From Octopus vulgaris (lineage: Eukaryota), in assembly GCA_951406725.2 (NCBI GenBank), contig OX597819.1, positions 132,928,001 through 132,992,000 on the forward strand: 64,000 nucleotides of DNA, written 5' to 3'. The translations under genes were made by a program, and so were the position numbers. Below are positions 2,602 through 63,235 of the stretch, in pieces. Each line of letters starts with the position of its first letter. The stretch's first letter is position 1. The notes beneath the pieces were generated by a model. That model saw only the letters and a program-made list of their open reading frames with translations. It ran no database searches and was not told the origin of the DNA.

Positions 2602-4461
2602 CTTAGAAAGGTTTTGGCCAGTATTGGCCCAGGCCATGTCTAACTTAATAGCACCACCTGGCGAAGTCTTTCAATTCAGGATTTGGGCACCAAGGCCCAT
2701 TCGAGCAGAGAGTTATTGTTTGCGGAGACATATCCGGGTGTGGGTGGTTTGTCCGAGACTGTTTAAAGGAATTTGTCCAAAGACTTCTTGAATTTTGTGT
2801 GGTTAGTTTCTTTTTTGACGTGTCCTGGTGTAATGTTGAAGAGAGCGGGTCCAATTGAGGTGAAATAGTTGTGCCGTATTGTCGTTATGTGATGCGATTT
2901 AGATTTTTGTTGTGTGACGGATGGCACGTGGTCCAAGCCTTGGATGTATTTTGAAGGTGATGCCAACATCATTTGGACAGTGCTGATGGAATATTTTCCA
3001 CAACATACAGATAATGTAGCGTTCACGGCGTCGTTGGAGTGAATACAGTTTCAGCTTCTCTAGTCTACCCCAGTAGTCAAGGTCTGACATGCCATCTATC
3101 TTTTGTGTGATTGACCTTTGAGGAGCTTCAATTCTCATGATATTTTGTTTTGTGTAGGGAGACCACAGTGGACAGCAGTATTCAAGGTGGGGTCGGGCAA
3201 AAGTGGAGAAAAGAAGGATAATAGTGTGGGAATCTCTCGACTGGAAGGTTCTGAGAATCCAGGAACACATTCTGCGGGCCATGTCAACTTTGCTGCTTAT
3301 ATGTGTAGCCCAGCTTATGTTGTTGTCCACTGTTACTCCCAAGTCTCTGATGTTGTTGGATGTCATGAGAATTTCTCCAGAAGGAAGGGAGTATGGGAGT
3401 TTCAGAGCGTCCTCCCTTCCAAAGTGGATCAGTTCGAATTTGTCTTCATTTAGCAACATGTTATTCTTTTCCGCCCATTGGACAACAGCCAGTAGGTCTG
3501 ACTGAAGGCTTATTCGGTCATCCACGCCATTGATGACCTTCTGGAGCTTGGAACCATCAGCGAAGGTTCTGATGTTACTGTGTTTGATGGTGTCAGTAAT
3601 ATCATTTATGTAGATGATGAAGAGAAGTGGGCCCAACACAGTGCCTTGTGGGACACCACTGCTGACTTTGGCTGGGCTGGATTTGACTCCTTCGACTACA
3701 ACATGTTGGGTTCTGTTAGACAGAAAGCACTTGATCCACTGCAGCAGCTTTCCAGTGACACCAATATTGGACAGCTTTCTCTGAAGGATCTTATGATCAA
3801 CCCTGTCAAAGGCCTTGCTGAAATCAAGGTAGATGACATCAGTGTTGGAACCCTCTCCCAAGGCTCTCAAAATGTCATCAAAATGATGCAGTAGCTGCGT
3901 CAGGCAATCTCTCCCATTACGGAATCCATGCTGGTTGGAGTTCAGCATATTATGACTCTCAAGGAAGTGAGTCATACGCGATCTCAGCACCCTCTCAAAT
4001 ACCTTAATGATATGAGAGGTGAGTGAGATTGGACGGTAATTCACGGCAAGCGATTTGTTTCCTTTTTTGAAAACTGGAACAACAGACTGGGATAGAAGGT
4101 CTTCTGGTATATATCCAGCATCCAGTGAGTTCCGCCACAGATTGGCTAGAGGGAGTGCAAGTTGGTTTTGACACATCTTCAAGACACAAGCAGGGAACCT
4201 ATCGGGACCTACTGCTGAATTATGCTTCATTTCCTTTATTGCTGCTAAGACATCAGGTTATGTCCGATAAAGTGTATTGGGGAGTAACATCACTGATACA
4301 GCCCAGATCAGTCATATCAGGATTGCTGAAAACAGAGCAATATTGTTTCTGCAATATCTCTCCCATGGTTTTGGCATTATCTTGAAGAATACCATTTTCA
4401 TCAGTCAGAGGGCCAACAGTAGAACCAGTGACTCTGTGTTTTTTTTGCAAATGAAAAAAAC

Positions 4462-29540: not shown

Positions 29541-29712
29541 GACCTCGAAACAGAAATATATATATATAAGGCTTCATCAAATAGAATAGCACTCAATGAG
29601 TTAAGAGAGTAAAGATATTAGAATTAGAAAGCAACAAGCCCTGCGAATTACACAGGGTCGTTGTATTTCAGAAGGCTTGTGATTTTTATAATAATAATAA
29701 TAATAATAATAT

Positions 29713-30690
<978 letters not shown>

Positions 30691-34710: not shown

Positions 34711-34805
34711 GGAAATGAATGCAATTAAATAATAAATATATTATATAATATATGCAATTATATAATAAATATATTATAATAAATATATTATAATATATTA
34801 TAATA

Positions 34806-34846
<41 letters not shown>

Positions 34847-35430
34847 CATTAATAAATCTCTGAACGAGATATAAACAGTAACCGCTCGACAAGGTAAGGT
34901 GTACTCAGCCATCTGAATGTGGCCAGCCACTGGGGGTGGGGTGTTACTGATGCTTTTAGCCCCAGGAGATCAACGTCACCAGAGATTTATTATTGCTTTC
35001 AGACCGTTTTTCTAAATCAGTGACAGTGGTTGCTGTGAAAAACGTTAAATATTATTTGCAAGGTGACTCCTTCATCGAAGACCGGTGCTTACCATGCGTT
35101 GACGAGAGGCAATTACCTTGAAACTATAGTCCGTATGTAGTACTTAGGTCTTCGAGGGAGGATGACCTCCCTTTGCAAATAACACAAGGGCACTGAGATA
35201 GTGTCTAAAGTCCATCTGGTGATCGCCTGGGGCTAAAAGCATCAGTAACACCCCACCCCCAGTGGATAGCCACATTCAGATGGCTAGTACTCCTTACGTC
35301 GTTATATATATACATATATATATATACATATATATACATATATATATATATATATACATAATATATTATATATATGTATAATATATATTATAAGTTATTT
35401 ACTATTCATTATTTAATTGCATTGATTTCC
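34711..35430. mobile_element. ~720-bp foldback (MITE-like) element with long imperfect inverted arms
   Basis: Outer arms are ggaaatgaatgcaattaaataat / attatttaattgcattgatttcc. GC-rich arms 34907-34966 and 35226-35285 are complementary at 58/60. Inner complementary blocks (tcaccaga/tctggtga, ttatttgcaa/ttgcaaataa, tcgaagacc/ggtcttcga) continue to the centre. Confidence 0.85.
35093..35137 (+). ncRNA. Minimal type-I hammerhead motif at the apex of the foldback
   Basis: CATGCG-TTGACGA-GAGG-caatta-CCTT-GAAA-CTATAG-TC-CGTATG: 6-bp stem I, core with C3>U, 4-bp stem II, palindromic stem III CTATAG, GUC triplet. Confidence 0.72.
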
Positions 35431-50195: not shown

Positions 50196-51443
50196 CGAGG
50201 GGTGTTCAATAAGTAATGCCCCTGACCCACTTGCAGTTATTTGATCTAGCTGAAATTTTGCATGTACAATTATTTATATCTCTATAAATTAAATGGCAAA
50301 TTACAGCTCTGAACTAATTGTGGTTTCTGATTTACAGGTGTTTGAACTGAGTCAAGTGTGAAATGGAGCCTGTTGAGTGTCGAGCAGTGATCCGGTTTTT
50401 GTATTTGAAAGGACGCACACCACGGGAGACTTTTGATGAAATGAAAGTAACTTATGGTGATGATGCCCCATCATATGACCTTGTAAAACGCTGGCATCGT
50501 GAATTCAAACATGGTCGGAACTCTGTGGAAACAGCTCCCAGATCTGATCGCCCCCTTCTGCCATTGATGAGGCATCTGTCCGTCAAGTTGAGGCTGCCAT
50601 TTTGGAAGATTGACGCATAACTATTCGCGAAATAGCCTATGAGGTCAAGATTAGTACCAGGTCTGTGGAAACTATCATTCATGACCATTTGCATATGCAA
50701 AAGGTGTTTGCCAGATGGATTCCCAGGTTGCTCACATCTTTCCAGAAGCAAGAACGCGTCGAGTGCTCGAGGGTGAATTTGGGGATGTGCAAAGAAGATG
50801 AGTCAAAATTTTTCAAAAGACTGATTACACAGGATGAAACCTGGGTCCATCACTATGATCCAGAGACCAAAGCCCAGTCAATGCAGTGGACACACCGTAA
50901 CTCACCTCCTCCAAAGAAGGCAAGGGCCAGCCCTCTGCTGGCAAGGTCATGCTCACAGTCTTCTGGGACTACAATTACAGGAGCCTATTATGCTTCACTT
51001 TTGAGGAAATTAAGAGAAGCTATTAAAATCAAGAGGTGGGGCAAGATCAGCAAAGGCATCCTCCTCTTGCAGGACAACGCTCCGGTTCACAACTCGCGTG
51101 TCGCCAGATCAGAAGCACAGGCATGCGGCTATGAACTCCTCCCCAACCCCCTACTATCCTGACTTTGCACCCTCTGATTTTCCCCTCTTCCCAGCCATGA
51201 AGTTGTTTTTGAAAGGAAAGCGTTTCCCAGATGATGCAGCCTTGGTTTCTGAAGTCACGTCGTGGTTGGAGGACCAAGCTGGGGTCTTCTACAAAAACGG
51301 TCTTCAGAGCTGCATCAAACGATGGGAGAAATGCGTAACTCTGGGTGGTTCCTATGTAGAAAAAGACTAATAACTGTGCCAAGTTTCGTTGCTCTACTGC
51401 TGTGGGAAGTGGGCCAGGGGCATTACTTATTGAACGCCCCTCG
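50196..51443 (+). mobile_element. Mariner (Tc1/mariner) DNA transposon with both TIRs and TA target duplication
   Basis: 37-bp TIRs cgaggggtgttcaataagtaatgcccctgacccactt (2 mismatches between ends); TA at 50194-50195 and 51444-51445. Confidence 0.95.
50363..51370 (+). pseudogene. Mariner transposase, frameshifted
   Basis: HTH N-terminus RAVIRFLYLKG, WIPRLL (WVPHEL-like), ITQDETWVHHY, LLQDNAPVH and YYPDFAPSDF (YSPDLAPSD-like), split over three ORFs. Confidence 0.92.
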
Positions 51444-55529: not shown

Positions 55530-56500
55530 ACTGCCTACGGTACCGTGCTTTCTGTTCTTTTCAGCTCTCTAATACTTTCCTGATTATTCTGGCCGTACCA
55601 AGGAGGTAAACCTTTTGTAACAGTTCTACTGGACTCTGTATTCCGATTTCCTTTATATTCCTCTCGATGCCTTCTCATACTCTCCCTAAGGACCCAACAA
55701 TAATTGACACTATTATTATGTGGCATTTTTACATACCATGCTATGTTTGCATCCAAACATCTTCCCCCTCTTTTTCTTGGTACATACAGACTGCCTGTGT
55801 CACGTTTTGGGTGGAGTGACCCATTTCTAGTTAGCAACTTCCTTGTCTTTCTGTCTAAGCTGTTTAGTTTGTCTACTGTCCATGCGTTTACCCTTGCTTC
55901 ATATCTAAGGAGTGAAACCACCCAGGTGTTGATAGCTTCCATCTTATTCCATCCGTTTAATTTCGACTTAAGAATCAGTCTCAGTCTGCGTAAGTACTCC
56001 ATCTTAAAGTTTTCTGTCATTTCTTTCTCCGTGATTTTATCCATTTCCCAAATCCCCAAGTACTCATATCCCGTCTCTTCTATCTGCTTCATAACCTCCC
56101 CCGACGGTATCCTTAGCCCGTCCATACATTTGATTTTACCTCTCTTCACGACTAACACACCACACTTTCTCAGTCCAAACTCCATTCTGATATCAGCACT
56201 GAAGGTCTACTCCGTATCAACGAGGGAACTGACTTGCGCTTCATCTTTACCATAAAGTTTGAGGTCATCCATGAATAACAAATGGTTGCCTTTTTGTTGG
56301 CGGCTTTTAAATACATACCCAGCTTTTGCTTTCCTCAGAAGCAGTGTCAGTGGTATCAAGCATAGTACATAGATCAGTGAGGATAGGCAGTCCCCTTGGA
56401 AGATGCCCCTCCTAATTTCTACTGTCCCTCAACTTCTTCCGTATGCTGTCAGGTCCGTCCTCTAATTCACCCTACTTTTTCCAAGCAGTCGCTCAACATT
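55530..56500 (-). mobile_element. Decayed, internally deleted R4/Dong RT fragment
   Basis: GIFQGDCLS, HLLFMDDLKLY, MEFGLRKC, YEYLGI, LKSKLNGWNK..AINTW and LHPK.D...LYVPRKRGGR. Confidence 0.85.
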
Positions 56501-56569
56501 GTCATCATCGATCCCAGAATTTAGACTTTAGACTAGCACTTTATTCTATAGATTTCGGAAGGGTGGAAG

Positions 56570-56616
<47 letters not shown>

Positions 56617-56680
56617 GTACAACTCCAGCGTTAAAAGCTGTGCAAAGGCAAAGATGATGATGATAATGATGATGATGATG

Positions 56681-56745
<65 letters not shown>

Positions 56746-56747
<2 letters not shown>

Positions 56748-57310
56748 GGGGACGTTTAAGAGAAGAGAACACCGGGGACGTTTAAGATGTAAGAAGGAAA
56801 ATACAGAGCTCCAAAATCTATCCACAAACATCGAAAACAAGGACATCCTATGGAGCCAAAGATTTACTAACAAAGAATTGGACTGTATCCGAGTAAGTAA
56901 TACTAATTGAAATTTATTACTATTTTCGAAACGAAATTATGTATTTTGACTCGATATCATCTCCACCTCTAACACAACACATGTAAACATGCGTGGAACA
57001 TCACGATCATCCCCGACCCCAAACACCATGTACAAACGAACTACGAAGAAATTAAATGCCACCGATACTATTCAACCCAAGAATAACAATCGAGCGGTGC
57101 GTACATTAAACTTACAACAAAAAATGTACGAAAAACTACACGTGCGAAATAATGTGACAACAGAAATAAACGGACCGGTACCCTACGAAAATGACGACCG
57201 TCAAAATAATGGGCCGGACGTTGTACCTTATGTCCCGCAAATAAAACCCAAAAGACGTAAATGGACACGTGAGGAATACATTTCTATCTTACACGCATAC
57301 TTCACAGAAA
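56746..57310 (+). mobile_element. 5' UTR and ORF N-terminus of an R4/Dong element, starting directly after (TAA)n
   Basis: ORF from 56989 contains RRKWTREEYISILHAY, the N-terminal motif typical of R4/Dong ORFs. A 15-bp direct repeat cggggacgtttaaga sits at the 5' junction. Confidence 0.6.
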
Positions 57311-58079
<769 letters not shown>

Positions 58080-61000
58080 GTTAAATGAAATTATTTACGC
58101 TTCTGCTAGGGCAATTGAAACCAGCTGTATGCCCCCGAAAAAACAAAGAAAACAAAACCTGGGAAGAAATCAAACCTGGAGAAGTAAAATTGAAAAAGAG
58201 ATTGAATTTATGAGAGGGGAAATATCAATATTAAATGAACTAATATGTGGAAATGATGTAAGATCCAGAACAGGAAGAAAGATGAAGAGAAAATTTGGAT
58301 CCTCACCAAGAGAAGAACTGATATCAATAAAAGAAACGCTGAAACAAAAAGTCCAAGCAAAAGCCCAAAGAATACGAAGATTTGAGAAGAGAAACAAGTT
58401 TTACAAGCAAAATAAGCTGTTCACATCCAATGCCAAAAAATTCTACAGAGAAATAGGGAAGGAGAAAGTAACCGTTAAAGACCCCCCTCCCATGGAAGAA
58501 GTTCAAAACTTTTGGGAAAGGATTTGGAGTGACAAGAAGACGTACAACATAAATGCAGACTGGATTATACAAACTGAAGGATCCTACCAAAATTTACAAC
58601 AACAAGCATGGGAAGACATCACAATAGCAGACCTAAGAAAGGCACTCACGAAGGCCCATAATTGGAAATCCCCCGGTAAAGATAGGGTACCGAATTTCTG
58701 GCTCGCATCGCTCCCGTGCGCACACGGTAAGCTAGTTCAGCTGCTCAATGGAATTTTGAGAGACCCAAAGAAAACACCTGAATGGTTAGCAAGTGGCATT
58801 ACTTACCTACTCCCAAAGAATAACGAAACCAACCTTCCAAAAAACTATCGGCCTATAACCTGTCTATCCACCACGTATAAAATCCTAACATCTATCCTGG
58901 CGGAGAAAACATATGCATTCATGGAGAAGAACGATATTTTCCCCATTGAACAAAAAGGGTGCCGCCGAGGCTCTTACGGATGCAAAGATCAACTGCTAAT
59001 CAATCGTATGATCCTTGAGAACTGTCACAACAAGCGCAGAAATCTCAGCACCGCATGGATTGACTATAAAAAGGCCTTCGACAGTATACCGCATCCATGG
59101 ATCTTGAGATCGCTGGACATCTTTAAAATTTCCCCTGTGATTTCAAACTTCCTGAAGCACAATATGTCGTTGTGGAATACGAATCTCCAATTATACCACT
59201 CTAATGGAGTACTTGCCTCAGAAAATATAAACATCAACTGTGGAATTTTTCAAGGTGACTCACTTTCACCTTTAATATTCTGCATAGCCCTAATACCCCT
59301 TACAAGTGAATTAAACAGAACAGGGTATGGGTATAAAATTGCCAATAAAAAAATAAGCCATCTATTTTATATGGATGACTTAAAACTTTATGGTAAAGAC
59401 AATAATGAACTTGAAGGCCTATTGTGCACCGTGAAAGCATTCAGCGATGACATCGGGATGGAGTTTGGACTTGAGAAGTGTGCCAAGGCCACTTTCCAGA
59501 AAGGGAAAGTGAAGACCACAAATTCAGTCGTGTTAGATGTTGACACAGTCATAAGAGAGCTTGAGCAAGAACAGACATACAAATATTTAGGGATAAATGA
59601 AGGCTCTGGTATTCAGCATGCAAGCATGAAAGAGAAAATCAGGAAGGAATGTTATAGGAGAGTTCGTGCAGTCCTGAAATCTGAACTAAATGCACGTAAC
59701 AAGGTGTTAGCTATAAATTCCTTAGCAGTTCCAGTTGTTACTTATAGCTACAATGTGTTGAACTGGAATATGAGTGAAGTAAAGAATATAGATAGAAAAA
59801 TACGCAAGCTGCTGAGTTGTAATAGGATGCACCACCCAAAGGCAGACGTAGATCGCCTTTACCTTCCCAGAGCCCAAGGAGGTCGAGGCCTGATCCAATT
59901 TGAACTAGCTTACAAAACAACCACAATTGGACTGGCCAAATATCTCGAAATATCGAATGACTGGATGCTAAAGCTCGTGGAAAATCACGAGAGACGAAAG
60001 AAGCTTCATTCTATCATCAAGGAAAGCAAAAAATTTGCTATTGATCTCGTGCAGGATACCCAAACTGAACAACCCGAGGGAAGTACGGCAACTATTGTTG
60101 CAAAGAAGGTGAAAATGATGGCAATGAAAAAAGCGCACGAGCAATTGGCTGATAGGTGGGAGGAGAAACCTCTGCACGGCAAATATGTGACCCGCAGCAA
60201 ACAAGCTGATGTTGACCAGAAGCAAACCCATCAGTGGCTGCGGAGCTCAGGGCTAAAAGCAGAGAGCGAAGGTTTCATCCTGGCTGCTCAAGACCAAAGC
60301 CTATTAACCCGGAACTACCAGGCCAATGTGATGAAAAATGGAGCAGACCCAAAATGCCGATTCTGCAACGACATGATTGAAACAGTGGACCACCTAATCT
60401 CTGGATGTAAAGTCTTAGCACCAGTGGAGTATAAATTAAGACATGACAGAGTTGGCCAATATCTCCACTGGCTAATAAGTCGGCATTACAATATCAAAAC
60501 TGCCGACAAGTGGTATAATCACCACCCTGAGGCTGTAACTGAAGGAGAAAATGTAACCATTCTGTGGGACTTTCCAGTACATACAGACCGAACCATCAAG
60601 GCCAATAAACCAGATATTGTTGTGAAAGACCAAAACAATAAAGTTTGCTTATTGATCGACATGAGCATCCCCTGTGATCATAATATCTCAGCGAAAGAGT
60701 TTGACAAGCTCAGAAAATATAAAGACCTACTCATTGAAATTGAGAAAATGTGGCATCTCAAGGCGGTTACAATACCAGTGATCGTAGGAGCACTAGGAAT
60801 GATCAAGAAGGGAACCGAAAATTATATGAGAATTATCCCTGGCTTACCATCCCTGCAAGAAGTGCAAAAGATTGTCTTAACTGGTACATCACACGTATTG
60901 AGAAGAGCATTGTCGATGTGAGAACTGTTGCTGCTCATGTATTTTAATTTAACTTAAAAAAAAAAAAAAAAAAATGAACGAACTACTGAGTTTGGTTTAA

Positions 61001-61095: not shown

Positions 61096-62570
<1,475 letters not shown>

Positions 62571-63235
62571 TGGAGTATAAATTAAGACATGACAGAGTTG
62601 GCCAATATCTCCAATGGCTAATAAGTCGGCATTACAATATCAAAACTGCCGACAAGTGGTATAATCACCACCCTGAGGCTGTAACTGAAGGAGAAAATGT
62701 AACCATTCTGTGGGACTTTCCAGTACATACAGACCGAACCATCAAGGCCAATAAACCAGATATTGTTGTGAAAGACCAAAACAATAAAGTTTGCTTATTG
62801 ATCGACATGAGCATCCCCTGTGATCATAATATCTCAGCGAAAGAGCTTGACAAGCTCAGAAAATATAAAGACCTACTCATTGAAATTGAGAAAATGTGGC
62901 ATCTCAAGGCGGTTACAATACCAGTGATCGTGGGAGCACTAGGAATGATCAAGAAGGGAACCGAAAATTATATGAGAATGATCCCTGGCTTACCATCCCT
63001 GCAAGAAGTGCAAAAGATTGTCTTAACTGGTACATCACACGTATTGAGAAGAGCATTGTCGATGTGAGAACTGTTACTGCTCATGTATTTTAATTTAACT
63101 TAAAAAAAAAAAATGAACGAACTACTGAGTTTGGTTTAATGGCCTACCAATGTATACTATGAGTTTCTTTGCCCTAGGAGTCGGGAAGACACTCGGCAAG
63201 AAATGGAAGCAAATTTGAAAGAAGAAAAAAGAAGC
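62571..63235 (+). mobile_element. 5'-truncated second copy of R4/Dong family 1
   Basis: Near-identical to 60425-61095 with few substitutions; flanked by (TAA)n. Confidence 0.93.

Follow-up and report, generated by a model that had tools for sequence, protein, structure and literature searches.

The window analysed here is a stretch of 64,000 nucleotides of the Octopus vulgaris genome (contig OX597819.1, positions 132,928,001 to 132,992,000 of the forward strand), an assembly of 2.8 Gb in 227 contigs that is rich in microsatellites. Between positions 34,711 and 35,430 it holds a foldback in which two copies of one repeat lie head to head. The main arm (34980-35303, + strand) covers positions 1-330 of a repeat unit of ~355 bp (95.8% in blastn against a natural tandem copy), contains a 6-nt deletion near 35219 and ends at its 3' terminus without a tail, at about unit position 327. 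The second arm (34844-34983, - strand) is inverted and 5'-truncated, runs from unit position 236 through the unit junction to position 19, and shares a microhomology of 4 nt with the main arm at 34980-34983. Its outermost part (34844-34890, - strand) is a PLE-type 'tail' extending about 45 nt past the first 3' end and confined to this arm. On the left the insertion borders an (AT)n target tract (34805-34843), which resumes rightward from 35304 as (AT)n-like sequence. Further outward, the AT-rich arms at 34711-34733 and 35408-35430, which align with each other, form an inverted repeat of the host. With one mismatch allowed, their sequence has two matches in the whole genome, both at this locus, and thus it lies outside the element to which the original prediction had assigned it. 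The complete AT-rich inverted repeat (34711-34843, 35304-35430) is specific to the locus and centred on the (AT)n tract that took the insertion; it could represent a cruciform-prone target or an insertion by-product. Flanking host inverted repeats were also considered as a family trait and rejected, as only 2/64 mapped loci scored at least 20, with the rest at 10 or less, and the second of the two repeats does not adjoin the element. Elsewhere in the window, an uninterrupted frame of 1029 codons with a reverse transcriptase domain (57832-60921, +) belongs to a non-LTR retrotransposon, with related fragments at 29600-30013, 55535-57821 and 61342-63067. Pfam matches also identify a LINE reverse transcriptase fragment (2899-4257, -) and a mariner-type transposase fragment (50614-51162, +).

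The foldback is far from chance, since the segment 34885-35305, folded on both strands as had been proposed, reaches z -21.6 on + and -17.1 on -. It was originally read as a single rod, with complementarity running from the AT-rich arms through a GC-rich arm pair and bulged inner helices into a hammerhead at the apex. The foldback is real and so is the type I hammerhead motif, every motif listed was found in its place, and the GC-rich arm pair, described as 58 pairs out of 60, indeed measures 60 bp with 2 mismatches. The rod, however, is built of three layers, namely a conserved inner hairpin of ~130 nt, a GC-rich inverted second copy and the locus-specific AT-rich outer arms. With an inverted - piece lying before the + unit, the tcaccaga/tctggtga helix and the GC-rich arm pair both belong to a DNA-level duplicate that arose at insertion, and the helix is not, as had been supposed, an inner helix of an RNA rod. 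The inner hairpin (35052-35182, +), with the hammerhead at its apex, is intrinsic to the unit according to subfamily covariation and predicted folds. Here the suggestion of RNA-level symmetry held up: the spacer alone folds better on + (-75.4 kcal/mol, z -4.9) than on - (-61.8 kcal/mol, z -3.3), and compensatory changes occur between subfamilies. In a structure alignment of 32 copies from the window's subfamily and its sister subfamily, 97.8% of cells are paired, against 32-49% in controls with slid partners. The covarying stems sought in the family appear as 13/66 pairs changed on both sides, including 7/11 in the outer helix of the inner hairpin, although these changes amount to a few subfamily-level events and are scored on a structure derived from the same alignment. 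They provide moderate support for an inner hairpin kept by compensatory selection at the RNA level. A comparable long hairpin is predicted in 6/7 subfamily representatives, the oldest of which retains the outer helices only, while full units folded as circles are branched, 61-67% paired and more stable than chance (z -2.7 to -4.8 in 3/3 units), with + favoured over -.

The type I hammerhead motif (35093-35137, +) consists of stem I (35093-35098/35132-35137), the core UUGACGA (35099-35105), stem II (35106-35109/35116-35119), GAAA (35120-35123) and a palindromic loop III (35124-35129), followed by C17 at 35131, after which cleavage is predicted. Two wobbles, U3·G8 and G10.1·U11.1, occupy core positions that are normally Watson-Crick pairs; the canonical C3-G8 and G10.1-C11.1 pairs are absent from the window copy and most of its subfamily but present in related subfamilies. 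Rfam hammerhead models gave no match in the window at E<=1 and none in 34950-35250 at E<=10, and hence the assignment is founded on the motif itself and on homologues with canonical (C3-G8) or U3-A8 cores, together with dimer energies. The MFE structure of the window copy places the core in an inactive fold, in which the core GAC pairs with GUC. Helix III strands are self-complementary in this copy and in all four subfamilies examined, with three different sequences among them, so that two molecules could pair as a double hammerhead. For the window copy, this fold has a predicted energy of -20.4 kcal/mol versus -18.0 for two free monomers and -23.0 for an alternative dimer, which is the MFE, whereas in a sister subfamily with U3-A8 the double hammerhead is the dimer MFE.

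A search of the same genome at the DNA level recovered many copies over query positions 101-423 with 92-96% identity, a sister subfamily ~80% identical to that of the window and, altogether, thousands of relatives, so that the locus is not a unique inverted duplication. Copies are arranged head to tail with a period of ~355 bp (353-360 bp), and as many as five cores follow one another at intervals of 353-359 bp. A general motif pattern matches exactly at 2436 places in the genome, whereas its reversed control has 0 matches. No stop-free frame of at least 120 aa crosses the element. The unit is therefore a tandem repeat within the 150-450 bp range of retrozymes, devoid of LTR architecture and of a long ORF, and carries one type I hammerhead per unit, which Rfam models miss in the window copy. 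Thus, the ~355-bp non-coding repeat is a non-LTR retrozyme and the 720-bp rod is not the element. Young subfamilies (L189:1883-3313 and L186-L188) form near-identical tandem arrays whose C3-G8 hammerheads are fully canonical, with seven cores in two inverted arms at the L189 locus, and would be the most suitable ones for assays of cleavage and circles. Contigs from two sequencing runs guessed to be RNA match the family, including a join of tail to unit start, a pattern that circles, tandem transcripts and DNA would produce alike and that carries no RNA ends. In these two runs, the deepest contigs match only the 50 nt at window 35161-35210 and then continue as a more distant subfamily.

The anatomy of the insertions was mapped at 64 loci, which comprise the best DNA matches, the first core-pattern matches and some older variants, and include a few segmental duplicates. 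Two arms are present at 34/64 loci and a single arm at 30/64, and in all 34 two-armed loci the 3' ends point outward, head to head. These 3' ends fall into two windows for 90/98 arms: 52 end at unit positions 320-331 and 38 at positions 8-21, ~45 nt further, with a tail end paired with a tail-less end in 28/34 two-armed loci. Inner junctions are spread over unit positions 1-344 and arm length ranges from 47 to 1103 nt, with 32/98 arms longer than 400 nt. Outside (AT)n, flanking strings of 9-15 nt are shared in 12/14 two-armed loci versus strings of at least 9 nt in 1/13 single-armed ones, lengths that may be slightly high because the search window took in a few element bases. At the window locus, a target duplication would be masked, as both flanks are (AT)n. 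Of the defined ends and target duplications looked for in the original prediction, two fixed classes of 3' end and duplicated targets were found, while neither the inner junction nor the arm length is fixed. Across the loci, insertions thus display the features of PLE-type integration: two 3' ends with an optional tail, an inverted 5'-truncated arm, a short target duplication and an AT-rich target.

The same data bear on the proposal that the whole foldback of ~420-720 bp is the selected unit, as a MITE hybrid or a viroid-like rod. This was suggested by the strong fold and by the single hammerhead, and indeed a complete hammerhead is restricted to one arm in 21/34 two-armed loci. For this reason a lone ribozyme within a foldback is common in the family, and it came to lie at the centre of this rod by chance, through the way the copy was truncated. 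The arms represent an inverted duplicate peculiar to each copy, with a junction that may fall anywhere along the unit. A single arm is found at 30/64 loci, the tail distinguishes the two ends, and the outer arms are unique to the locus. Neither the fixed terminal inverted repeats and uniform length of MITEs nor the unbranched unit-length circle of viroid-like rods was found, as the predicted circle is branched. What stood from the original prediction is that the element is non-coding, present in many copies, retrozyme-like and equipped with a hammerhead motif; the rod as a unit is largely refuted already and very improbable.

Variation at pair 3-8 of the core provides a second line of information on the family. 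Among the 2436 motif matches, 1176 are C-G (obtained by subtraction), 635 U·G, 581 U-A and 44 C·A, so that 2392 are paired or wobble, and about half of the C·A matches belong to one near-identical subfamily. U3 had been explained either as decay of a C3 core in this copy or as a family variant. The latter is correct: the U3 pattern has 369 matches versus 10 for the C3 pattern, 7 of these 10 in the window's subfamily, and decay is rejected. An older relative has a C3-G8 core. In trees of 83 copies with the core and loop III columns excluded, a long, fully supported branch parts C-G subfamilies from a U·G grade that holds the window copy. Beyond this grade lie U-A copies with the old loop and then a U-A radiation, inside which one clade unites sister C·A and C-G subfamilies (100/99) and another toggles between U-A and U·G. 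Forcing the U·G group to be monophyletic is rejected (p-AU 3e-6, and 4e-5 in a later tree). One round of tree building kept 111/134 extracted stretches, of which 59 were drawn; the next left out 9 rows that were truncated or chimeric and 3 with long branches, and the last left out 6/20 new rows, with near-identical, long and possibly recombinant rows thinned. The subfamilies appear to record a ladder from C-G through U·G (the window copy) and U-A to C·A/C-G, an order subject to the caveats of two long branches, possible recombinants and a root placed on the oldest-looking subfamily, and in which C·A stands as the sister, not the demonstrated ancestor, of the new C-G group. A small amplified subfamily with the C3·A8 mismatch core, sister to a C3-G8 subfamily, is found at L205-L211. 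U3 cores account for 1216/2436 motif matches and are missed by canonical descriptors and Rfam, and consequently counts of animal retrozymes are probably too low. Literature searches showed no paper that treats this retrozyme family or a series of subfamilies with U3·G8, although Lunse et al. 2017, a study of hammerhead variants in PLEs, may already report U3·G8. The supplements of PMC4209133, PMC7229834, PMC8557442 and 10.64898/2026.07.22.740005 could list the family, and by term search the main text of a 2026 Octopus repeat annotation (PMC13282606) mentions neither hammerheads nor ribozymes.

A genome search for GIY-YIG domains revealed several PLE families with RT and C-terminal GIY-YIG, in which a cysteine linker precedes the GIY-YIG. 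Judged by sequence, and by the definition in the available text of PMC8557442, these are of Neptune or Nematis type. One young family (L091:2245-4590, +, and L094:641-5470) has many open frames of 781 aa encoding RT and GIY-YIG, another long open frame upstream, which measures up to 479 codons between stops, and a terminal repeat with a U3-A8 hammerhead-like motif; the family also has its own ~35-nt tail and (AT)n targets. At least three further families with C-terminal GIY-YIG lie at L165-L184, where a relaxed scan recognised no hammerhead nearby. A likeness by eye between the retrozyme tail and that of the young PLE was discarded after a windowed test (rank 542/1954 windows). The unit itself is no autonomous PLE, having neither an ORF for RT and GIY-YIG between pLTRs nor homology to one, and among 52 loci around GIY-YIG matches no autonomous PLE shares sequence with it, the only similarity being to neighbouring retrozyme copies. 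The unit might instead be the solo pLTR of a yet-unfound autonomous PLE, with the copies as truncated stumps, in line with the 5'-truncation of most PLE insertions and with the relationship between retrozymes and pLTRs reported in the consulted part of preprint 10.64898/2026.07.22.740005. We consider this improbable, as arms, once past the unit junction, continue in a further unit and not in ORF sequence, up to five cores follow one another, and no homology links the unit to the PLE loci compared.

We favour, with a probability of about 85%, the reading that the locus is a two-armed insertion of a ~355-bp hammerhead-bearing non-LTR retrozyme, likely copied in trans into (AT)n by a PLE reverse transcriptase-endonuclease. 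It builds on what was directly observed, namely a repeat unit that forms tandem arrays, two classes of 3' end, arms inverted head to head, duplications of the target site and covariation in the inner hairpin. In the proposed pathway, tandem copies would be transcribed, and two hammerheads would join through the palindromic helix III and cut slowly, yielding unit RNAs that may be circularised. A PLE protein would then nick both strands of AT-rich DNA ~12 bp apart, and cDNA would be primed from both nicks at two fixed internal sites ~45 nt apart, which the insertion ends place at some 175 and 220 nt downstream from the predicted ribozyme cut. The two 5'-truncated cDNAs would finally be joined head to head via microhomology, which implies that every insertion makes its own outer arms. 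For arms exceeding one unit in length, the template must be either circular or an uncleaved multimer.

This latter choice marks the main rival, in which element and PLE mobilisation are the same, the hammerhead is a weak or inactive passenger in this subfamily, and copies derive from uncleaved read-through RNA of tandem arrays without a circle. The two core wobbles, the inactive MFE and a double hammerhead that is not the dimer MFE agree with it. Moreover, only 2/98 5' ends lie at the predicted cut (unit 150-156), without enrichment, in a sample that was chosen for hammerheads and is thus biased for this count. Cleavage is perhaps dispensable for copying, because the C3·A8 subfamily also spread; ribozyme mutants leave PLE insertion unblocked in vitro according to the available text of PMC11167929, and cleavage was seen in 1/9 retrozyme dimers in the consulted part of preprint 10.64898/2026.07.22.740005. 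Nevertheless, the remaining core and the self-complementarity of helix III persist in all subfamilies seen, pair 3-8 is almost always paired or wobble, and lineages revert to Watson-Crick pairs, which renders the passenger explanation unlikely, if the strongest of the alternatives. The favoured trans-copying of a retrozyme could be extended, tentatively and at somewhat less than even odds, to a dated fossil series of one lineage. In this series, pair 3-8 would have passed from C-G to U·G, U-A, C·A and back to C-G, each state an amplified subfamily and wobble tolerated far better than mismatch, with copies written by a PLE enzyme that uses both nicked strands to prime at two internal positions of a circular RNA. 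If true, the genome would offer direct evidence that PLEs mobilise retrozyme circles in trans, and would hold a natural fitness landscape for the active site of a ribozyme.

PLE-type insertion yields the rod as an ordinary by-product, and the significance of the finding resides in the family. Most of what was found is explained by known biology, what is new being the core series with its wobble states and the explicit footprint of a PLE. In the texts available, PLE mobilisation of animal retrozymes has been inferred from co-occurrence and repeat homology, and the preprint 10.64898/2026.07.22.740005 leaves the mobilisation of retrozymes open in the part consulted; here, the insertion footprint is itself PLE-like and points to two priming sites. 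In addition, the near-isogenic natural subfamilies (C-G, U·G, U-A and C·A) are suited to a direct test of how much cleavage is needed for retrozyme spread.

Compared with known systems, the family most closely resembles the metazoan non-LTR retrozymes, as presented in the accessible parts of Cervera and de la Pena 2020 (PMC7229834) and Li, Clavereau and Pollet 2026 (10.64898/2026.07.22.740005). These are likewise short tandem repeats without coding sequence, each unit of which carries one type I hammerhead and measures about 350-390 bp in mussels, cf. ~355 bp in octopus, and both have a self-paired predicted circle and co-occur with PLEs. The octopus family thus conforms to those features of metazoan non-LTR retrozymes that can be judged from sequence, as set out in the available portions of PMC7229834 and PMC6765202. 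As a difference from these two accounts, its insertions bear the full PLE footprint, with a head-to-head inverted arm, an optional tail, a ~12-bp target duplication and (AT)n targets, and the window core combines U3·G8 with G10.1·U11.1, in a family known from genomic sequence; a term search of the accessible text of PMC7229834 did not return the word 'inverted'. In EN+ PLEs, insertions combine partial tandems with a 5'-truncated copy in inverted orientation, and one end bears a tail of 30-40 bp (PMC8557442, PMC3846280); this tail has been traced to two internal RT start sites, with both strands nicked and extended (PMC11167929). Within the sections consulted, these three sources also describe short target duplications, AT-rich targets and a hammerhead upstream of two 3' ends, all shared with the octopus insertions. 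In contrast to EN+ PLEs, the octopus element has no ORF, consists entirely of one 355-bp unit and showed no sequence link to an autonomous PLE. Finally, the minimal hammerheads of PLEs, as characterised in the available text of PMC4209133, share the type I fold, the short palindromic helix III and the dimer-dependent design. Natural U3-A8 covariation was already known from this source and from the accessible part of PMC3088659, and the U3-A8 variant is also present in sister subfamilies of the octopus unit. What sets the octopus family apart from PLE minimal hammerheads is that all four states of pair 3-8 have been amplified as subfamilies of a single lineage, with U·G alone in 635 matches.
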